Origin: a virus
Taxonomy: Duplodnaviria > Caudoviricetes
Direction: 5' to 3' (one strand)
DNA length: 26,157 bases
Virus record (IMG/VR): IMGVR_UViG_3300010398_000039
Coordinates: 1 to 26,157 of that record
Within the stretch, counting starts at the first letter, position 1, and each line of letters starts with the position of its first letter. Below the pieces are notes generated by a model, which saw only the letters and a program-made list of their open reading frames with translations, ran no database searches and was not told the DNA's origin. Below are positions 3,633 to 12,477 of this stretch, piece after piece. Made by a program: the position numbers and the translations under genes.

Positions 3633-4169
3633 CCGCGGCCTACCTCAATCTCATTTCTTCGTTTTTTCCGTATTTAGCGCCAACAGAGTCTTATGTCCCA
3701 TTACTGAGTTTTCTTGCGCGCGCCGCAATGGGCCAAACGCGTGATTCGGCGGCGTCGGGCGCGGCGCCCAACGGTGGGCAGGGTGCGTCATCACCGGCCA
3801 GCGCTCGAGTCGCGCGCGCGATCCTTGGGGCGCGCGTCGCGCGACCACACGAGCTCGGCCGAGCACATCCGTACTGCGCCGCATCGAGAATAGCTTTCGA
3901 TAATGGCAGTTGTCGCAAGCTGGCCGCGCGATCGGCTCAGCCGGCAATAGGCCCGCACGGCGGCAGTCTCGCAGTGTGCTCGGGTTATGTCAACCTGGCG
4001 CAGTAGGTGCCCGGCCGAACTGAGCCGGATTCGGTCCCGAACAGCGGCAAAGTGACAAGCCAGGGGGGAGAGTCCGGGGATGGACCAGGTAATGGTTTCA
4101 GTTATGTCAAGTGAGAATACCGACCATTGACACCAACCTCGCGCGCGGACCTTCCCCTCTCAAACACAT

Positions 4170-4183
4170 AGAACATGTGTACT
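4170..4183. promoter_or_regulatory. Degenerate LexA(SOS)-box-like site AGAAC-ATGT-GTACT
   Basis: One mismatch to AGAAC-N4-GTTCT; related copies at 9995 and 10041. Confidence 0.35.
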
Positions 4184-4196
4184 AATTTGAGATTGA

Positions 4197-4255
4197 CCAT
4201 TAGCACCATTAGCACCATTAGCACCACCATTGGCACCACCATTGGCACCATGGCA
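4197..4255 (+). repeat. Tandem iteron-like repeats CCATT(A/G)GCA
   Basis: CCATTAGCA x3 (4197-4223), CCATTGGCA at 4227 and 4239, CCATGGCA at 4248; followed by inverted repeat TTGCTAA-N6-TTAGCAA (4260-4279). Confidence 0.9.
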
Positions 4256-4308
4256 GATATTGCTAAAGAACGTTAGCAAAACCTCAACCTCCCGTTAGCA
4301 CACTATGC

Positions 4309-4327
4309 TTGATTCATCCTGTAAGCT
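4309..4327 (+). promoter_or_regulatory. Putative early promoter motif TTGA-N3-ATCCTG-TAAGCT
   Basis: Same motif at 6769-6787; ends in a -10-like TAN3T hexamer. Confidence 0.4.
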
Positions 4328-4394
4328 GTGGCCACACAAGCGAAACGAGAGGAGAACCGAACCAGAACGACTCAGTTCGAACCCACCAGACAGA

Positions 4395-4679
4395 ACGGCG
4401 CGAGCCACCGGTGAGAGCCCGGGAACAGAGCCCAACACTTGCGACAGCGCGGTGAGGCTCCGAGCAAGCAGGCAGCGAATAAGGGGATCGCCTTAGCAGG
4501 ATGGCCTACCGGCTCTACGCTGCGCGTCCCACCGGCCCACCATGGTCTAAGTGTTTCGGTATCTCACCCGGCTGCACAAGCGGGGAGTCCGGCGCCATGG
4601 CGGGTGATAGTGAGTGGGCTCCGTCGATACTTAGCAGCGCGCTACCCGGCAAGCCTGCACAAGCGCCCCGGCTCCGAAT
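4395..4679 (+). ncRNA. Candidate structured non-coding RNA / leader
   Basis: No credible ORF. Several nested complementary segments, e.g. 4547-4555/4626-4634, 4564-4570/4601-4607, 4518-4522/4635-4639, 4534-4540/4614-4620, and hairpin CCGG-TGAGAGC-CCGG near 4408-4422. Confidence 0.45.
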
Positions 4680-4777
4680 GGGGTGATATGGCGCTCTCGT
4701 GAGCCCGGCGATGTACCTACGGGGTGCACGCTACACGCAGTGAGAGCGGGTCAGTTCGATTCTGGCTCACCCCACCA
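4680..4777 (+). ncRNA. tRNA-like element (acceptor stem, T-arm, encoded CCA; no canonical D-arm)
   Basis: GGGGTGA (4680-4686) pairs with TCACCCC (4767-4773), followed by A-CCA; T-arm GTCAG-TTCGATT-CTGGC; long helix CGCTCTCG/TGAGAGCG in the anticodon-arm position. Confidence 0.7.
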
Positions 4778-4816
4778 TGCGGGATTGGTCCGTCTCGCAG
4801 CAGTTCAGTTCGGACC
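4778..4816 (+). ncRNA. H-type pseudoknot between the CCA end and the first RBS
   Basis: S1 TGCGGGA (4778-4784)/TCTCGCA (4793-4799); S2 GGTCCG (4787-4792)/CGGACC (4811-4816); loops of 2, 0 and 11 nt. Confidence 0.55.
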
Positions 4817-4831
4817 TACGGAGCTACCAAC

Positions 4832-5674
4832 GTGAATACTGCACTACGTGCCGCGATCGCCGGCCTTGACAGGCCTCTGGGTTTCCGCGAGCTACTGACG
4901 CCCGACGGATACAATCCCAAGCTGAAAAAAGGCCGCGCACGCGGTTACGCGAGCGCCATTCTGCACTTCGCACCGGCTGACCTGTCAGGCTATGACGTCT
5001 GCCAGTACCGTTCGGCCGGTTGCACCGCAGCCTGCCTGAATACGGCCGGCCATGGTGGAATCATCCGCAAGGGTCAAACCACCAACCCCGTGCAATTGGC
5101 GCGTATCGCCCGGACGGTGCTGTTCTTCGAACACCGCGCGATCTTCAATGATCTCCTGGTGGACGCGATCGAGCAGCATGTCCGGCGATCGATCAAGCGT
5201 GGGCTCACGCCGGTTGTGCGTCTCAATGGGACGTCCGACTTGCCATGGCACATGCTCAAGCTCAACGATGGACGCACGGTCATGGACACGTTTCCGACCG
5301 TGACGTTCTACGACTACACCAAGCATCCGCAGCGCGCTGCGCTCCGGACCTTGCCGGCCAATTACTCGCTGACGTTCAGCCGGAGCGAGACGAACGACGA
5401 CGACGTGCGCCGGATCCTGGCGCGCGGCGGGAACGTCGCGGTTGTCTTCGCGACCGGTCGCACCCGGCCATTGCCGCTCGTGTGGCACGGTTACCGCGTC
5501 ATCGACGCGGACAGGGATGATCTCCGGTTCCTGGATCCCAGGAACGTGGTGGTCGGACTCCGGGCCAAGGGTAAGGCCCGGGGTGAAGCTTCCGGGTTCG
5601 TCGAGGATCCGGACGCGGACACTGCCTGCTGGCCAATTGATCCCGAGCGGGATTGCATGGCGCACGCGGCCTGA
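4832..5674 (+). CDS. GP88-like phage protein (Cys-cluster, radical-SAM-like)
   Basis: C-x6-C-x3-C (CQYRSAGCTAAC), RLNGTSD, FYDYTK, YSLTFS and DDLRFLD motifs recognised from the phage gp88-like family; GTG start after GGAGCTACC. Confidence 0.75.
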   Translation: MNTALRAAIAGLDRPLGFRELLTPDGYNPKLKKGRARGYASAILHFAPADLSGYDVCQYRSAGCTAACLNTAGHGGIIRKGQTTNPVQLARIARTVLFFEHRAIFNDLLVDAIEQHVRRSIKRGLTPVVRLNGTSDLPWHMLKLNDGRTVMDTFPTVTFYDYTKHPQRAALRTLPANYSLTFSRSETNDDDVRRILARGGNVAVVFATGRTRPLPLVWHGYRVIDADRDDLRFLDPRNVVVGLRAKGKARGEASGFVEDPDADTACWPIDPERDCMAHAA

Positions 5675-5675
5675 T

Positions 5676-5734
5676 CGCAGAGTGGACCCGGCTCCGGCTG
5701 GGTCTAATGCGGCAGTCCCGGTCACAAGCCCGGG
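5676..5734 (+). ncRNA. Twister ribozyme, permuted (P5-type order), copy 1
   Basis: GCAGAGTG - P1 hairpin GACCCGGC-TCCG-GCTGGGTC - TAATGCGGC - CCCGG-TCACAAGC-CCGGG; predicted cut between 5705 and 5706. Confidence 0.88.
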
Positions 5735-5761
5735 CAATCTTCGTCGCAGAGGAGCTACCCC

Positions 5762-6772
5762 ATGACTATCGCTACGCAAGCCGGGTCCGTGTTCGCGGAT
5801 CCGAAGCGCTGGGAGTCTGCTATCACGCAGACACTGGTGCTGCGCGAGTCGCTCGGCCGCAAATTCGACGCGGTTGACGTCGCCGAACACCCGTGGATGC
5901 GCCTGGTCGCGTATCGCTATAGCGCCACCTATCGTGGCGACTTCGAGTACATGCTCAGTCAGCGAGATGCGCTCACGCGCTATCCCACGCAGACTGATCG
6001 CCAGGTCGCCGGCGTGCTGAATTGCGCCGTCCCCGATTGGCGCCGCTCAGCCCGGCCGGTGGCTGGTAGTAATCACCTGTTGCCCAACGTGACGGACGTC
6101 CCGTCATCGCGCTACCGGGTCGTTCAGCCGGATGGCAAGAGCCTGAGCGTGCGCCTCGACAGCGCCGCGTGGGCGAAGGATCGCCCGGAAGGCACGCGTG
6201 CCCTCTACTACCTCGGCCAGGGCGCCGAGTGGCAGTTCGCCGGCTTCATCGATCCGACCGGTGACATTCGCGTGATCGCGCGCGAACGGCACATGGTCAA
6301 GAGTCTCCACGCCGCGCTCACCGTGCTAACCGAGAGCGTGCCGGAGGGTCGCTGGTTGGTCCACGCGCTCGCGTTCAGCCTGGAAGGCAGCGTGTGCTGC
6401 TTCTGCGGGCGCGAGCTCGATACGGCCGAGTCCATCAGCGTGGGCTATGGCCCGGTCTGTGCTGACAAGCACGGCCTGCCGTGGGGTGAGGTCGCGGAAC
6501 CGGCGAGCGTCGTGCTCGCCCGGGACGCGATCGCGCACGGTGGCATCGACGCCGAGCCAGAGCCGGAGGAGACTCCGGCCCGCGTGCCTCAGGCCGGTGA
6601 CGGCTTGCGCGCGCACGATGTCGGCGTGTTCGAGAGCGGCGCCGCCATCATCGCGAAGACCGGTGGCGTGTCCTCGAGATTCGCGGACGTCGTGCGCGAG
6701 GTAACCGGTCGCGAGCCGGCGCCCCGCTGGCGCCCCGGCCGCACCTACGAGGAGATTTTCGGAGACGATTGA
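5762..6772 (+). CDS. DUF6011-like zinc-binding domain protein
   Basis: CCFCGRELDTAESISVGYGPVCA motif; RBS GGAGCTACC. Confidence 0.75.
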   Translation: MTIATQAGSVFADPKRWESAITQTLVLRESLGRKFDAVDVAEHPWMRLVAYRYSATYRGDFEYMLSQRDALTRYPTQTDRQVAGVLNCAVPDWRRSARPVAGSNHLLPNVTDVPSSRYRVVQPDGKSLSVRLDSAAWAKDRPEGTRALYYLGQGAEWQFAGFIDPTGDIRVIARERHMVKSLHAALTVLTESVPEGRWLVHALAFSLEGSVCCFCGRELDTAESISVGYGPVCADKHGLPWGEVAEPASVVLARDAIAHGGIDAEPEPEETPARVPQAGDGLRAHDVGVFESGAAIIAKTGGVSSRFADVVREVTGREPAPRWRPGRTYEEIFGDD

Positions 6773-6787
6773 CGGATCCTGTATAGT
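6769..6787 (+). promoter_or_regulatory. Putative promoter motif TTGA-N3-ATCCTG-TATAGT
   Basis: Matches the 4309-4327 motif; intergenic, upstream of an RBS. Confidence 0.45.
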
Positions 6788-6807
6788 CCATCACGCAAGG
6801 AGCTACC

Positions 6808-7029
6808 ATGCCACGCATCTATGCGCGCAACAACGACCCGCTCGACTTCTGCCGAGCACACATGCCGACCCGCGACGTCGCCGAGGTTCTCTACGGCGGC
6901 GCGATCGTCGGTGACGGCCCGGACGGCCGTGGCGACTACTACGACTACGACGCAGAGCACCCCAATTACGATTGGGACACTGTCTATTGCGAGCGCTGCG
7001 ACGTCCTGTTGGGCGAGCGCGACAACTAG
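6808..7029 (+). CDS. Hypothetical protein (73 aa)
   Basis: ORF with AAGGAGCTACC RBS; CxxC near C-terminus. Confidence 0.75.
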   Translation: MPRIYARNNDPLDFCRAHMPTRDVAEVLYGGAIVGDGPDGRGDYYDYDAEHPNYDWDTVYCERCDVLLGERDN

Positions 7030-7093
7030 CGCAGAGCACCCCTCCGGCTCAGCCCGGAGGGCGTAATGCGGCAGGCCGGTTGCAAGCCCGGCC
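7030..7093 (+). ncRNA. Twister ribozyme, permuted, copy 2
   Basis: GCAGAGCA - P1 hairpin CCCTCCGG/CCGGAGGG - TAATGCGGC - GGCCGG-TTGCAAGC-CCGGCC; predicted cut between 7064 and 7065. Confidence 0.88.
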
Positions 7094-7120
7094 AATTCTT
7101 CAGCCGCAGAGGAGCTACCA

Positions 7121-7318
7121 ATGGCAGCAACACTTCTGGATGGCAAGTTCGTCTACGAGACGCGCGTCACGCCATCCAACGACAAGCCGTCGAGCCGGGT
7201 GGTGATCACTCTGGATCTCAATCACCCGGAGCTTCGTTTGCTGATCGACCGCGCGCGCCGTTCGAAGGGGCAGCGTGCCGTCGAGGCGGGCGGTGCGCTC
7301 GTGGTGCGGGTCTCGTGA
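7121..7318 (+). CDS. Hypothetical protein (65 aa)
   Basis: ATG after AGGAGCTACC; high GC3 codon usage. Confidence 0.75.
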   Translation: MAATLLDGKFVYETRVTPSNDKPSSRVVITLDLNHPELRLLIDRARRSKGQRAVEAGGALVVRVS

Positions 7319-7518
7319 TCCGCACCGACCTGGCCACGATCCGCAATCTCGGCCTAATGGCGTTCAACCTGTCCTACGCAGACTTCCGCTGGCATCTTGG
7401 CCTGGACGACGACGACTACGCGCGCGGCAAGTACGAGGCACTCAAAAACCTCGGCCGCGCCATGGCGCCGTTCAGCGACGCCACGCTGTACCGCCTGGTT
7501 GAGGCGTACCGATCATGA
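7315..7518 (+). CDS. Hypothetical protein
   Basis: GTGA start/stop overlap with the previous gene; 3' part of track ORF 7066..7518. Confidence 0.6.
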   Translation: MIRTDLATIRNLGLMAFNLSYADFRWHLGLDDDDYARGKYEALKNLGRAMAPFSDATLYRLVEAYRS

Positions 7519-7895
7519 AAACCGCCGAGCTTCGCTTCGTCTGGTTCGACGATCGCGACCTGAACACCGTCATGCGCGCCTGGGGGCGCGAGCATGGTTA
7601 CGCCGGCGCCAAGGGCGGCTGGATCTACCACGCGAGTGGCCAATCCGTCTGCCAGGGCTGGTGGAGCCTCTGGAATCAGAGCCGCCAGTCAGTCCTCGAC
7701 TGGCTCACGCGCCGTAACACCGGCTTCGACACGTTCGACGAGCTCGTCGACACGCACACCGACTACCGGCCGACGATCCAGCCGCGCAACGCGGAGACGC
7801 GCAGCCTGGCGGCAGCGTACGACCAGATTCAGAAGCAGCGTGGCGACGCGCGCCGCGCCTACACCTACTACCAGCCCGGCCGCGTCCAGGCGTAA
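7515..7895 (+). CDS. Hypothetical protein (126 aa)
   Basis: ATGA overlap, GAGG RBS, typical codon usage. Confidence 0.75.
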   Translation: MKTAELRFVWFDDRDLNTVMRAWGREHGYAGAKGGWIYHASGQSVCQGWWSLWNQSRQSVLDWLTRRNTGFDTFDELVDTHTDYRPTIQPRNAETRSLAAAYDQIQKQRGDARRAYTYYQPGRVQA

Positions 7896-7905
7896 GGAGC
7901 TACCC

Positions 7906-8244
7906 ATGCGAGACAAGTTGGAGATTGCCGCCGACATCCTCAACGAGATCGACGGCAACGATCAGGTTGACATTGCCCAGCAGTACGTCGCGGACGCGCT
8001 TGCCGAGCTACAACCCGCGAAGGTCTACGTGGTGCTGTTCCACGACGTGTGGGACAACGGCAACGACCCGGGCGTCGAGAACGAGAACGGCGAACCGGAG
8101 ACCACCAGCATCGAGCGTATCTTCGCCCATCGCGCGGCAGCCGAGGATCTGGTGGCGTCATTCAAGGCGCCCGACTTCAACCTCAAGGCGTCCCACTCCT
8201 TCTTCACGATCGAGGAGTGGGCCCTCGACGATAGCGCAGAGTGA
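7906..8244 (+). CDS. Hypothetical protein (small acidic phage protein)
   Basis: ATG after AAGGAGCTACC (MRDKLEIAAD...); 3' part of track ORF 7594..8244. Confidence 0.75.
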   Translation: MRDKLEIAADILNEIDGNDQVDIAQQYVADALAELQPAKVYVVLFHDVWDNGNDPGVENENGEPETTSIERIFAHRAAAEDLVASFKAPDFNLKASHSFFTIEEWALDDSAE

Positions 8245-8302
8245 CCGGATCGGGGGCCCTCCCCCTCCGGGCTAATGCGGCGGACCGGTCACAAGCCCGG
8301 TC
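8235..8302 (+). ncRNA. Twister ribozyme, permuted, copy 3 (overlaps upstream stop codon)
   Basis: GCAGAGTG - P1 hairpin CCGGA..GGGGG-CCCT-CCCCC..TCCGG - TAATGCGGC - GACCGG-TCACAAGC-CCGGTC; predicted cut between 8273 and 8274. Confidence 0.85.
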
Positions 8303-8327
8303 AATTCACACCGCAGAGGAGCTACCA

Positions 8328-8540
8328 GTGAGTAGTCAAGCACTTGAGCACTTCGTGCTCTACGACTCGGATGCCAATCCGATCAGTTCGCATCTCGCCG
8401 ACGAGGGCGAGTGCACCGTCACCTGGCTGGGCGAAGCCGTGCTCGATCACGCCAGGCTCAGTCCCGAGCCGCTGCGCCTGGTGCGCGAGATGATCAGCCC
8501 GGACAACGTCGAGTGGTATCGCGGACCGGAGGCCAGCTGA
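8328..8540 (+). CDS. Hypothetical protein
   Basis: GTG after AGGAGCTACC; 3' part of track ORF 8241..8540. Confidence 0.7.
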   Translation: MSSQALEHFVLYDSDANPISSHLADEGECTVTWLGEAVLDHARLSPEPLRLVREMISPDNVEWYRGPEAS

Positions 8541-8812
8541 TGGCCTCCTTCGCCTTCTTCCGCCAGGTCGGTAGTGCCGGCTCGGTAACCGACCTCGTGG
8601 TGAACGTCGATCACGTCATCACGGTCAACCCCAGCATGCTGCGCGAGCGCTCGGTGCTCGTCCTGGCCGGGTCCGAGATAGGCATCGAGGTTCGCGGCGA
8701 CCTGACTCAGGTCGTCGAGACGCTGCGCGCCGCCGTCGATAGTGGTGGCCTGCGCGTGCTGCGCTCGATGGACGCCAGCCTGGCCAAGATGGCCGAGGAA
8801 ACGAGCTACTGA
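8540..8812 (+). CDS. Hypothetical protein
   Basis: TGATG overlap, GGAGG RBS (MASFAFFRQ...). Confidence 0.7.
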   Translation: MASFAFFRQVGSAGSVTDLVVNVDHVITVNPSMLRERSVLVLAGSEIGIEVRGDLTQVVETLRAAVDSGGLRVLRSMDASLAKMAEETSY

Positions 8813-9165
8813 TGGGCCGCGCGATCAGCCGCAGCGGGAGTGAGCCCTTCGCGGCTCACGTCTCCTGCTCGCGCCCCAAGTGCGACCAGCAGCAGGTGCT
8901 CGACGTCGAGCTCGATCAGGCGCTCTTCGAGGAGGTGCATAGGCGCAACCTGTACCTGCTGTCGAAAGAGGAGCGCGACGCGATGGACACGCTGCGTGAC
9001 ATGCAGTTCACGCTGATGTACCAGGCGCCGACCCCGGGTGGCTGGATCAAGCTGACCGAGCCGAACCTCGATCACCCGAGTCAGGCACGCGCCGCGCGCG
9101 AGTTCTGCTCCTGGCGCTGCGTGCGCCTGTTCGCGACCGGTCGCGAGAACGGGAAGGACGTCTGA
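8812..9165 (+). CDS. Hypothetical Cys-containing protein
   Basis: TGATG overlap; CxxxxC and FCSWRC motifs. Confidence 0.7.
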   Translation: MGRAISRSGSEPFAAHVSCSRPKCDQQQVLDVELDQALFEEVHRRNLYLLSKEERDAMDTLRDMQFTLMYQAPTPGGWIKLTEPNLDHPSQARAAREFCSWRCVRLFATGRENGKDV

Positions 9166-9329
9166 TGCCGATCACGGCTGACACGATCTCCGGGCTCACG
9201 CCGCCCCGGTGTATTGCCTGTGGCCAGCCGCTGAGCCAGCTTGAGTGGGCGATGGCCAGCGCGTCGAGGCATGGCCAGCCGGCCCACGCCCGCTGCCTGC
9301 TGCGCCTGCGCGCGCGGAGGCTGCTATGA
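9165..9329 (+). CDS. Small putative zinc-finger protein (54 aa)
   Basis: Manual translation; CIAC...HARC; start and stop overlap both neighbours. Confidence 0.55.
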   Translation: MPITADTISGLTPPRCIACGQPLSQLEWAMASASRHGQPAHARCLLRLRARRLL

Positions 9330-9451
9330 GTGTCGGCGACGCATGGGGGCTGATCATCTGCTTCAGCGTCGCTTTCTGGATCATCGGCGCCTACATGGGA
9401 CTGCTGACCGAGAAAGGGAAACATCGTGACTGCAACTGCAACTGTGGCTAA
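9326..9451 (+). CDS. Small membrane protein
   Basis: GGAGG RBS, ATGA overlap, one hydrophobic helix (WGLIICFSVAFWIIGAYMGLL). Confidence 0.55.
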   Translation: MSVGDAWGLIICFSVAFWIIGAYMGLLTEKGKHRDCNCNCG

Positions 9452-9701
9452 GAACCCGGCCGGCGCGCGCTTCGTCGGCGCGCGCGAGCTCCTGGGCCTG
9501 ACCCAGACAGAGCTCGGTTTCCGGCTCGGTGTCCACTACACGACGGTCGCGCGTTGGGAGACGAGCGAAGCTGGCCCGCCGCTGATGGCTCAGTGGGCGA
9601 TGGTCGGGCTGCTGCTCGAATCCGACCTGAAGCCTGCCGCTGCCCACCGGTTCGCAGACCGGATCGGGCAGCGGCTCGAGGTGACTGATGACGATGCCTG
9701 A
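9426..9701 (+). CDS. XRE-family helix-turn-helix regulator
   Basis: ARELLGLTQTELGFRLGVHYTTVARWE. Confidence 0.88.
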   Translation: MTATATVAKNPAGARFVGARELLGLTQTELGFRLGVHYTTVARWETSEAGPPLMAQWAMVGLLLESDLKPAAAHRFADRIGQRLEVTDDDA

Positions 9702-9996
9702 TTTCGGCGAGCCTCAGATCTTCTTCCTATCGCTCACAACGCCCGAGGGCAAGCCCTACACCGGTCGCCTTACGGGCTGGCAAGTCTTCGACGGCAGACC
9801 TAGCCATCATGGCCATCACACGCTCTACAAGACCGTGGATGGCCGCTATCTCCTGTATGGCAAGTCGTCGGAAGCGCCGCGCGATATCACCGGCAACATC
9901 ACGTCCAGCCGGTATGGCCTTGATCAGTGGTTTGAACGCGACGAAGTGGTCGCGATCCGAGAAATTCTCGGGCTCGAATCGGTTATCGATCTTTAG
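9688..9996 (+). CDS. Hypothetical protein
   Basis: GAGGTG RBS; last gene of the plus-strand operon. Confidence 0.65.
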   Translation: MTMPDFGEPQIFFLSLTTPEGKPYTGRLTGWQVFDGRPSHHGHHTLYKTVDGRYLLYGKSSEAPRDITGNITSSRYGLDQWFERDEVVAIREILGLESVIDL

Positions 9997-10008
9997 AACA
10001 TATGTTCT
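9995..10008. promoter_or_regulatory. Perfect LexA(SOS)-box-like palindrome AGAAC-ATAT-GTTCT
   Basis: Exact match to the GAAC-N4-GTTC box of Gram-positive-type/Chloroflexota LexA. Confidence 0.5.
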
Positions 10009-10045
10009 GGTGCTAATGCTCGTTTTCGAGCATTAGCACCAGAAC
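10004..10045. repeat. 19-bp perfect inverted repeat containing CATTAGCACC (origin element and/or terminator between convergent operons)
   Basis: GTTCTGGTGCTAATGCTCG-TTTT-CGAGCATTAGCACCAGAAC; another GGTGCTAATG near 10100. Confidence 0.85.
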
Positions 10046-10116
10046 GTGTGTCCTAATTTTGATCTCAGACCCCCCTGTGGTGAGTAATTTGGTGCAAGTG
10101 GTGCTAATGCCTATTT

Positions 10117-12477
10117 TCAGCTACCTCTGGCGGGTGGGTAGACCCAGATCTTGGCCTGTCCACCGGTGCCCTCGCGCCTGACCACGCGCTCGCCGCCGTA
10201 GTTCGCGGCGTAGGCACTCATGACGGCGTTAAACAGCTTCGCATCGCGGCAGACGATGCGCCGCCGCCGGAGCTCGTGCTGCTGGATGCGGCCCTCGCCG
10301 TGGCGCAGCGCTTCGAGCGCCGGGATGAGCTTGGTCAGCACGAGCTTGTTGGCCTGGGTGTCCTGTTGCGTCACCCCGGCCACGTCTTCCTCGCCCAGCG
10401 CGTGCCAGCAACGGACGCTGAAGCGCACGATCGCGCCGGCGGCTTCGACGATCCAAGCAGGAATCTCGCCGCCTCGGCCCGGGCTCTCGAACTCGGCCAG
10501 GACAAGCGCGACGCGCGACAGATGAACCGAGCCGCGCAGGAAGATCGCGCGCACTGTATCGCTCTGGCCGGGCAAGTAAGCCTCGGCGCGCCAGAGCTTG
10601 AGGATCTTGTCGAACATCTTGCGTGTCTCGTTTTCTGGATCCTTGGGGATGAGCCAGACACGTCGCTGGGCGCGTAGATCGAGCAGCTGCTTGATGCGCT
10701 CGTTCCATTCGAACGGAACGCCGTCGTCGCGCTCGACTATGTCCGGGCCCGGGTCACGCGCCAGGAAGGGCAGCCAGCGCGAGCGCATGCCGTCGCCATG
10801 GGCTGGGCCGAGCAGGTGTTGGTTCGTTGGCACGAGCCCACCCAGGACTGGCACGGTCGGCTTCTCGATGTAGAGCGCGATCTTGTTCCGAGGACTACGA
10901 CCGTCACCGCGTCGCCGGTAGGTCATCGGCCGGTCAGCGCTGAACAGATCGAGGAACACGCTACGGTCGAACGATAAGCCACTGTGGCTGTACTGCCCAA
11001 AGCTTTCGAGCAGCTTGCTTAGCTCACCGGTAACGATCGCCAGGGCAGCCGAGCCAGTCTCGTCCTGCATCTGACCCAGGTCGGCCATGAGTGCCGGTAC
11101 GGTGCCCGGATCAGCAATGAGCGGCATCGGCAGCGTCGGCGATTGCAACCCCTGGTCACGCTGGTAATGCCGATCGAGCACCTCGGCCGCTCGTCTGATT
11201 GCGCCATTCTTGCCGCGCGCAGCTTCAACGATGAGTGGAATCCAGAGCACGGCGCGCTCGGCCCGGCCGGCGTCGAGTTCGACGCAACTTTCGCTGCCGA
11301 TGGCGGCGCAGGCGACGCCGAGCCCGGCGCCGATACTCAACGTTGGATCCAGACTCGTGGTCGACGCCAGCTTGCCCCAGAGCGGGCTGAGTACGTCGAT
11401 CGGAAACTCCGGGATCTCCGGCAGCGGCTCTGGCTCGACGTCCTCGATCTCGTCGGGGATCTCGCGCGTGACGCGGTGGTGACCATTGCGTCGCTGCCCA
11501 AGCCTCGGGCTGCTGTCTGGCCGGTAGTCTTTCGAGTCGCCGAAATCAGCTGGCCACCAGGGTGAGCCCTCGCCGTGATGTAATGCGTCCTCGAGCGCGC
11601 GCTCGGTGGCTTCCTCACCGTCGCCACCGTCGCGCGGCGACATGGTCAGCCCGTTGACGTCGCACGCCGCGAGCAGCGACTGACGCGCGTTCTGCGCGTC
11701 CAGTAGGCCATTGGCCACGAGTCCGCCAGCTGCCTCGGCGACCTGCATGAGCCGCGCCCGGCGCGAGCCCGGCACCTGCTCGCTCAGTTCGTTCACCCAC
11801 TTGGCCAGCATGCCGGCCGCGCGCCGATCCTCGAAACGACCGGGCGTCGTGCTGCCGGTCCGCTCTTTTTTCTTCTTTTCCCGCACCGGCGGAAGCTCGC
11901 GCCAGTCGAGCGCGTCGCCCTCCTGGGCGAAGAAGCGGCGCGAGCTCGCGCCGCACGTCAGCCACATCATGCGCGAGCTGTCTTTCGTCGCCGGATCGAG
12001 CCAGCCCTTCAGCAGCTGGTTCACGCGCGCCCAGGCCTCGTTGTAGTCGGCGCCCGGAATCGGCGACACCAGCCGGACCAACACGCGCCAGCGCAGCGCG
12101 TCGGGTTTCGAGTTGAACGTCTCGACGAGGAAGACGTCGTAACCACGCAGCCGATCGAGGACGTCCTCCGCGGTCACCCCGATGTCGACGTCGAGGATCA
12201 GCACGCTCACCTCGACGACGTTCTCCTGCTTGCGCTGGGGTGGGTCGAACATCGCCGGCGACATCAGCCCGACCTCCTGGTTACGCGCCTCTTTCGTCGC
12301 CGCGGGGCGCGTTTTCGCCCAGCCATCCTTCAGCTGCTGCCAGGTAAAAGTGCGAACGACGGGCTTCGTGTCGTGGACATTCCGGAACAAACTGACGTGC
12401 AGGGAATCTTGCGCTGGTGTAGGCTGCACCGCAGCAGACTCCTGTTCTGGTGTCTCGGGTCTGTCACAGGCAGCCAA
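10117..12477 (-). CDS. Primase-like replication protein with C-terminal DUF3987-like domain
   Basis: N-terminal LILDVD ... RWRVLVRL ... DPATKDSSRM primase-polymerase-like motifs; C-terminal segments (LWIPLI..RGKN, ELSKLL, LGGLVP, DGMRSRWL) resembling DUF3987/YfjI. Confidence 0.7.
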   Translation of the reverse strand: MAACDRPETPEQESAAVQPTPAQDSLHVSLFRNVHDTKPVVRTFTWQQLKDGWAKTRPAATKEARNQEVGLMSPAMFDPPQRKQENVVEVSVLILDVDIGVTAEDVLDRLRGYDVFLVETFNSKPDALRWRVLVRLVSPIPGADYNEAWARVNQLLKGWLDPATKDSSRMMWLTCGASSRRFFAQEGDALDWRELPPVREKKKKERTGSTTPGRFEDRRAAGMLAKWVNELSEQVPGSRRARLMQVAEAAGGLVANGLLDAQNARQSLLAACDVNGLTMSPRDGGDGEEATERALEDALHHGEGSPWWPADFGDSKDYRPDSSPRLGQRRNGHHRVTREIPDEIEDVEPEPLPEIPEFPIDVLSPLWGKLASTTSLDPTLSIGAGLGVACAAIGSESCVELDAGRAERAVLWIPLIVEAARGKNGAIRRAAEVLDRHYQRDQGLQSPTLPMPLIADPGTVPALMADLGQMQDETGSAALAIVTGELSKLLESFGQYSHSGLSFDRSVFLDLFSADRPMTYRRRGDGRSPRNKIALYIEKPTVPVLGGLVPTNQHLLGPAHGDGMRSRWLPFLARDPGPDIVERDDGVPFEWNERIKQLLDLRAQRRVWLIPKDPENETRKMFDKILKLWRAEAYLPGQSDTVRAIFLRGSVHLSRVALVLAEFESPGRGGEIPAWIVEAAGAIVRFSVRCWHALGEEDVAGVTQQDTQANKLVLTKLIPALEALRHGEGRIQQHELRRRRIVCRDAKLFNAVMSAYAANYGGERVVRREGTGGQAKIWVYPPARGS

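Follow-up and report, generated by a model that had tools for sequence, protein, structure and literature searches.

Type-P5 twister ribozymes, reportedly described by Roth et al. in 2014, are represented in Rfam by the Twister-P5 model (RF02684), which stops at P4. In the type-P1 permutation, the 3′ strand of P2 lies right after P4, so that the 3′ product of a type-P1 ribozyme keeps P2 after cleavage. The glmS ribozyme likewise self-cleaves in bacteria to leave an mRNA with a 5′-OH, but its cleavage is ligand-driven and leads to decay, whereas the strand described below is predicted to hide the new 5′ end (PMC6765202, in part). Engineered twister and hammerhead aptazymes that sequester the Shine–Dalgarno (SD) sequence likewise combine a 5′ UTR ribozyme near the SD with refolding after cleavage; in these constructs the SD lies inside a ribozyme stem, whereas here it lies outside both folds, with no conserved anti-SD found in the homologues (PMC5052635, in part). 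CPEB3/HDV-like ribozymes have inhibitory flanks, that is, native sequence that can pair into the core and compete with the active fold, as the present strand also could; their flank, however, belongs to another ribozyme class, lies upstream and is eukaryotic, whereas the present strand follows its ribozyme, remains part of the 3′ product and shows covariation in a wide range of phages (PMC11662667, in part). The available part of that article also deals with the type-P1 twister. In the portions available, the literature searched, mainly open-access main texts and including PMC10085705 and PMC13725137, did not describe an anti-P2 strand behind P5 twisters, and the word ‘ribozyme’ was not found in the accessible part of PMC11924767. 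The purpose of self-cleaving ribozymes in bacteria and phages is an acknowledged open question (PMC6765202, in part).

The DNA analysed here (the window) is a virus record of 26,157 bases from a soil phage whose genes include terminase subunits, a helicase, a primase-like gene, VRR-NUC and a transglycosylase. Three motifs in a rightward run of small genes, mostly unknown, at 4724–9996 are, by alignment and pairing, type-P5 twister ribozymes with predicted self-cleavage (Table 1). All three matched the same full 58-position model (positions 1–58) with scores above its gathering score of 37.6. In every copy the alignments reproduced the P5 order, that is, the P2 3′ and GA-T2 strands, P1, the UAA cut site, the P2 5′ strand and P4. 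The T2 pseudoknot forms three of three pairs in each copy with changing bases (CAC/GUG, UGC/GCA and CAC/GUG) and thus covaries; the GC/GC bases of the T1 pseudoknot are present, and the P1 stem beside the cut site is clear in copies 1 and 2 and irregular in copy 3. Twisters cut at the U^A step of UAA, and the cut sites were placed by this rule. The intergenic setting in a phage is the same as that given for bacterial ribozymes (PMC6765202, in part).

Table 1. Positions in the window of the three ribozymes, their downstream strands and the flanking gene signals.
Feature	Position	Strand	Content or basis
Type-P5 twister, copy 1	5676–5733	+	Rfam RF02684, 65.6 bits
Copy 1 upstream strand CGCA-GA-GUG	5676–5684	+	followed by P1 hairpin; pairings
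Copy 1 predicted cut	U5705^A5706	+	U^A rule
Copy 1 P2 5′ strand UGCG	5708–5711	+	pairings
Copy 1 T1 GC	5712–5713	+	pairings
Copy 1 P4	5718–5733	+	with L4 CAC; pairings
GP88-family ORF stop TGA	5672–5674	+	ends 1 nt ahead of copy 1 upstream strand
Anti-P2 strand, copy 1, GUCGCA	5743–5748	+	6 bp to UGCGGC (one G-U)
Copy 1 RBS AGGAGCTACC and ATG 5762	5750–5764	+	336-aa DUF6011-domain ORF, 5762–6772
Type-P5 twister, copy 2	7030–7091	+	RF02684, 47.2 bits; T2 UGC/GCA
Copy 2 predicted cut	7064^7065	+	U^A rule
Copy 2 P2	7067–7070	+	pairings
Copy 2 upstream ORF stop TAG	7027–7029	+	abuts ribozyme
Anti-P2 strand, copy 2, GCCGCA	7103–7108	+	6 Watson–Crick pairs to UGCGGC
Copy 2 RBS AGGAGCTACC and ATG 7121	7110–7123	+	65-aa ORF
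Type-P5 twister, copy 3	8235–8300	+	RF02684, 45.4 bits; T2 CAC/GUG, irregular P1
Copy 3 predicted cut	8273^8274	+	U^A rule
Copy 3 P2	8276–8279	+	pairings
Copy 3 upstream ORF stop TGA	8242–8244	+	inside ribozyme upstream strand
Anti-P2 strand, copy 3, CCGCA	8311–8315	+	5 Watson–Crick pairs to UGCGG
Copy 3 RBS AGGAGCTACC and GTG 8328	8317–8330	+	70-aa ORF, orthologue of ORF behind L190 ribozyme

Contigs of run X1, from which this DNA may derive, span the stretch in two pieces that overlap at 7063–7092. About 400 bases at 4300–4720, ahead of the GP88-family ORF, held no convincing gene and gave no Rfam match, and no sigma-70-type promoter was found in 3900–10200. The early operon is flanked by three AGAAC-N4-GTTCT-like palindromes (4170–4183, 9995–10008 and 10041–10054; 0.43 expected), accompanied by inverted repeats at 4207–4239/10077–10109 and a 30-bp hairpin at 9993–10056. 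The palindromes resemble a Chloroflexota-type LexA box; the literature on this box gave no useful confirmation for them.

Downstream of P4, each ribozyme of the window is followed by a short strand complementary to its P2 segment (the anti-P2 strand). A sequence-only reading of this DNA had pointed in all three copies to a second CGCAGAG that runs into the RBS, had placed copies 2 and 3 correctly, and had proposed 5–6 bp with UGCGG(C) and a lack of the matched pseudoknot bases, all of which held when checked base by base. The word GCAGAGGAG has exactly three exact copies in the window (5746, 7106 and 8313), each 11–13 nt past P4. The strand makes 6, 6 and 5 bp in copies 1–3, and the upstream strand pairs with the P2 segment by 5 (one G-U), 4 and 4 bp. 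Only 1, 2 and 1 of the three T2 pairs are available to the downstream strand, compared with three of three in each case for the upstream strand, and P1 built from the bases past the downstream T2 strand reaches 3, 2 and 3 of 6 positions, contiguous in copy 3 only. Formation of an active type-P1 ribozyme by the downstream strand was ruled out by this incomplete T2 and the lack of a full P1. When free, the anti-P2 strand of copy 1 is predicted to lie in the loop of a local hairpin whose stem is UCUUC/GAGGA.

With one mismatch allowed, the GCAGAGGAG 9-mer was not over-represented in the window (7 found, 10.8 expected), so that the signal is its position and not its count. Because AGGAGCTACC is the general RBS word of this phage (6 exact copies, 3 without a ribozyme), AGGAG and likely also the preceding G are part of the RBS. 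CGCA stands before the RBS copy at 6798 as well, and three copies in one genome therefore cannot separate pairing from an RBS habit. That ribozyme-free RBS (6790–6807) reads CACGCA-AGGAGCTACC, as in the ribozyme leaders, with no Rfam RNA upstream, and is possibly a cassette that lost its ribozyme.

Homologues were collected by pattern scans that left the downstream strand unspecified, with the window excluded. At least 200 unique ribozymes with full upstream P2 and T2 pairing formed at least 177 clusters by their downstream 60 nt, and two scans contributed 120 of about 160 and 121 of about 320 matching stretches. We dropped 23 type-P1 ribozymes, matches without full upstream pairing and matches with less than 30 nt downstream; L026, L041 and L091, which are true type-P1 twisters, were removed from the set. 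Sampling is biased, since the listed matches are a part of the whole and much of P4 is prescribed by the patterns used; the set is affected throughout, and its clusters are phylogenetically non-independent. An exact complement of the ribozyme’s own P2 lay within 30 nt past P4 in 67 of 177 listed clusters, against 18.6±3.8 in mononucleotide and 21.9±4.2 in dinucleotide shuffles, so that the check for conservation in homologues proposed in the earlier reading came out in favour of the strand. A replicate set gave 19 of 43 listed clusters versus 4.1 expected. Across 164 listed leaders with an SD, 63 matches preceded it versus 9 in an equal length after it, and among the matches listed for the first homologue set CGCA was the second most enriched 4-mer, behind GGAG. 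The exact 4-nt match was absent in 110 of 177 listed clusters; scans for P2 variants changed at position 2 and for viral relatives with the AGGAGCTAC RBS were without matches.

Ribozymes occur in arrays, with three in the window, six, eight and six in genomes G001–G003 and four in Tunturi_4 (L362, PP885687.1), a cultured Acidobacteriota phage whose host is Tunturiibacter empetritectus. The Tunturi_4 ribozymes, at 2843, 3766, 6001 and 7583, are unannotated P5 twisters, and CGCAUU stands behind three of the four. One of them has T1 changed to AC/GU, and two have a common downstream CTGCACACTGTGCAG hairpin. At three of six ribozymes in G003 (L006), the CGCAUU strand has a small CCGG hairpin to itself and lies in its loop, another way of holding the strand before use.

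Across the homologues, the downstream strand changed together with P2. At the first position of P2, leaders behind UGCG ribozymes carried CGCA only or CGCG only in 49 and 7 of 121 listed clusters, and those behind CGCG ribozymes in 3 and 11 of 40 listed clusters (p=3.8e-6 across classes; p=4e-4 in the subset with GC>=0.5). Matches of at least five Watson–Crick pairs also tracked their own P2, with counts of 32/4/1 in the UGCG class and 0/6/0 in the CGCG class of listed clusters. Position 4 covaried as well (55/11 vs 1/7, p=1e-4); the wobble pattern behind this table was picked with the data already in view, and 1 of its 7 matches lies beyond the SD. A far-window control of the position-1 table was also significant at offset 90 (p=0.04 and 0.007), and because CGCG is frequent in other leaders of GC-rich genomes (26/85 and 30/87), a gain of CGCG alone is weak evidence. 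In L156 and L190, the upstream strand, P2 and the downstream strand are all changed in the same register (CGCG, CGCG and ACCGCG-GAGGAG). Both carry the RBS of the window phage, and the genes behind their ribozymes are orthologous to window ORFs 8540 and 8328; in L190, with P2 CGCG, the downstream CCGCG lies at the site matching window copy 3. A further ribozyme, G001:13521, has P2 CCAC and downstream GCGUGGU.

Within single genomes (the window, G001, G002 and Tunturi_4, with G001 and G002 related), where the other leaders of the same genome served as the control, folding predicted that the freed 5′ segment pairs better with its own leader for 18 of 21 ribozymes (0.65 vs 0.35, p=4e-5). Twelve of the 21 fell in the top 5%, and the window copies ranked 0.13, 0.09 and 0.00. 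An exact-word test in four genomes gave 7/16 (one match missed) versus 73/332 (p=0.06). The three exceptions to the folding result, G001:9951, G002:44625 and G002:41045, have P2 CUAC and T1 CC/GG or CG/CG and are without the downstream strand; this CUAC-type subgroup is a natural negative control. Together, the covariation and the within-genome folding control support selection of the downstream strand for pairing with the P2/T1 segment, and with it the strand exchange that had been suggested from the window. Judged by sequence comparison, the anti-P2 strand, which lies 0–25 nt downstream of P4 and outside the Rfam model, is a genuine accessory to a ribozyme class already known, and it is widespread and covaries.

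The flanking bases gave a different picture from the one first drawn, in which a decoy of GCAGAG, joined to the SD, stood behind each ribozyme. GAG followed the own-P2 complement in 5 of 177 listed clusters, and the GCAGAG mimic appeared in 1 of 78 in the first homologue set (among the matches listed), which rules out GCAGAG mimicry as a conserved feature. The base after the match was U in 23 of 67 listed cases (p=7e-4), with UU in 12 of 177 versus 0.6 expected, and the gap to the SD varied, being <=2 nt in 20 and >10 nt in 16 of 60 listed leaders. C preceded the match in 30 of 67 listed cases, versus 2 of 177 at the genuine upstream strand. T1 supplies the partner of this extra C, and U or UU pairs with the cut-site adenosines, which the active ribozyme has to keep unpaired; a sixth pair (G at −2) was not enriched (1 of 177 listed vs 1.1 expected). 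In a run X2 contig that is a close relative of copy 1, T5744C and G5749T produce GCCGCAU, by which GCAGAG is lost and seven Watson–Crick pairs to AUGCGGC are made, in one contig that stands outside the independent counts. The decoy description was therefore given up: the GAG behind the window strands is best read as overlap with the SD, as is likely also for the GAG in the five homologue clusters. Compared with a type-P1 twister, the downstream strand is extra, stands beside a complete upstream strand, comes without T2 or P1 and often has U or UU in place of the catalytic GA. The run X2 relative also has about 240 extra bases between two ribozyme cores at 5705–5735, and L156 has its orthologue of ORF 8540 directly behind the ribozyme; from these two arrangements, ribozyme cores look like the edges of shuffled gene cassettes.

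We propose, with about even confidence, that the anti-P2 strand comes into play once the RNA has cut itself, when it would fold the freed 5′ end (AAUGCGG...) into a protective terminal stem and keep the ribozyme halves apart. The P5 order of the strands puts the P2 partner and the T2 strand on the 5′ product; because the partner leaves with that product, U^A cleavage would set UGCGGC on the downstream mRNA without one. The upstream strand, made first and held by P1 and two pseudoknots, would let the ribozyme fold and cut, after which the 5′ product would depart, possibly stripped by a ribosome terminating at the stop that abuts the upstream strand. The downstream strand would then pair with UGCGG(C), and often also with the cut-site A’s (CGCAU, CGCAUU), as covariation and folding suggest, in a predicted stem that closes around P4 and leaves 0–2 free 5′ bases. 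The P5 product would in this way regain a P2-like helix at the place where type-P1 twisters have theirs. A stem-capped 5′-OH end may resist 5′-end-dependent decay, and the long early transcript would thus become separately stabilised gene units.

Predicted pairing of the 3′ product to its leader exceeded 0.5 in 126 of 177 listed clusters, versus 64 with shuffled leaders, and the predicted number of unpaired bases among the first six was 4.15 without and 2.48 with the strand (n=60, listed). In the window, copies 2 and 3 have a predicted 3′-product stem with two free 5′ bases, with pairing of 0.8–1.0 in copy 2; in copy 1 a competing fold limits product pairing to about 0.6 when the RNA ends at the start codon and to 0.17 when 30 nt of coding sequence are included. 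The 5′ stem on the new mRNA that had been put forward earlier is thus borne out by the folding models. Stem-loops in the 5′ UTR stabilise bacterial mRNAs (PMC7509114, in part), and processing of polycistronic transcripts is a suggested role of bacterial ribozymes (PMC6765202, in part). Two results from E. coli count against a cap, in that cleavage of an engineered twister in the 5′ UTR left mRNA and protein levels unchanged and lower expression was associated with structure remaining ahead of the SD (PMC5052635, in part). The strand is also dispensable, because many listed clusters are without the exact match and the three CUAC-type ribozymes are without the strand. From covariation it follows that the two segments pair, but neither the timing nor the purpose of the pairing, and the same helix would also block the uncleaved ribozyme.

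It is possible, although we hold it doubtful, that the strand acts before cleavage, competing for P2 during transcription. The footprint of a terminating ribosome would cover the upstream strand of the ribozyme. A ribosome terminating on the upstream ORF could in this way leave UGCGG(C) to be captured downstream and trap the inactive fold, so that cutting would depend on translation of the upstream gene. The predicted energy of the downstream minus the upstream fold is +0.8, −0.5 and +0.5 kcal/mol in the window and has a median of +1.4 kcal/mol in 67 listed homologues, 16 of which favour the downstream fold, with pseudoknot energy omitted throughout; the pair of the extra C with T1 would also serve such competition. 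The upstream frame ends −8 to +9 of the ribozyme start in 122 of 172 listed clusters, versus 8–9 of 172 at shifted anchors, with stop positions that peak at −4, −3 and +7, and all three window copies are likewise stop-adjacent. The CPEB3 ribozyme gives a precedent for inhibitory flanks (PMC11662667, in part). However, stop adjacency is independent of the strand (72/105 without vs 50/67 with, listed; p=0.49) and could come from compaction of the genome, transcription makes the upstream strand before the downstream one, and the two pseudoknots, absent from the energy model, favour the active fold. We regard as unlikely that phage P5 twisters are two-state, ligand-free, translation-gated switches in which, with a terminating ribosome on the 5′ strand, the anti-P2 strand locks the RNA; if this were true, the translation of one gene would decide the cutting of the transcript and the capping of the next message, in phages of many hosts.

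We judge improbable that cleavage activates translation, with the strand as the loop of an anti-SD hairpin and the freed 5′ end pairing with that loop to expose the SD. The predicted unpaired fraction of the SD would change from 0.03 to 0.36 in copy 1 and from 0.12 to 0.94 in copy 2, and from 0.49 to 0.58 in 33 long-linker homologues, of which 10 open by >0.2 and none close (p=6e-4, a contrast without a null); such release is the basis of engineered twisters (PMC5052635, in part). Copy 3, however, is without the hairpin and goes from 0.90 to 0.73, SD accessibility is 0.66 with the strand versus 0.61 without (n=60, p=0.08), and the gap to the SD is not fixed. In the 33 homologues the linkers did not exceed shuffled (p=0.72) or swapped (p=0.95) ones in anti-SD character, and a conserved anti-SD linker was ruled out by these controls. 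The coupling to ribosome loading offered in the sequence-only reading would, as an anti-SD hairpin, apply to window copies 1 and 2 only, and it fails the same controls.

Ligation of ends such as twisters leave is reported from RtcB work. A guard against circles or hybrid ribozymes, in which the strand occupies P2 and prevents re-pairing and ligation, or the re-cutting of a ligated circle, seems to us quite improbable. It would suit the arrays of ribozymes, since a segment cut out between neighbouring twisters would start with the 3′ half of the first and end with the 5′ half of the second; T2 alternates in the window, so that hybrids of neighbouring copies would be mismatched or wobbly, but it is mostly identical among the copies in G001–G003. 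A neutral relic, whether the leftover P2 strand of a type-P1 ancestor or the stub of a deleted cassette and functionless now, is very improbable: the strand does sit where type-P1 twisters have the P2 3′ strand (4–17 nt past P4 in 23 P1 clusters listed), GAG is kept behind it within 30 nt in five listed clusters and CGCA recurs at the ribozyme-free RBS 6798, but the strand tracks P2 changes and its flanks (C before, U after) are avoided by the real strand; an origin as a relic is possible, neutrality is not.

A covarying strand outside the catalytic core means that selection acts on a second, non-catalytic fold, most simply that of the downstream product, and an anti-P2 strand is the expected kind of intermediate between the P1 and P5 permutations. 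It would escape in vitro assays in which the P5 twister is cut at P4. The strand can be altered with catalysis left intact, and a compensatory change can restore it, which makes it a clean experimental handle, and Tunturi_4 provides a cultured phage carrying four P5 twisters together with a cultured host. Refolding after cleavage, as we prefer to read the anti-P2 strand, would help explain the use of these ribozymes to phages.
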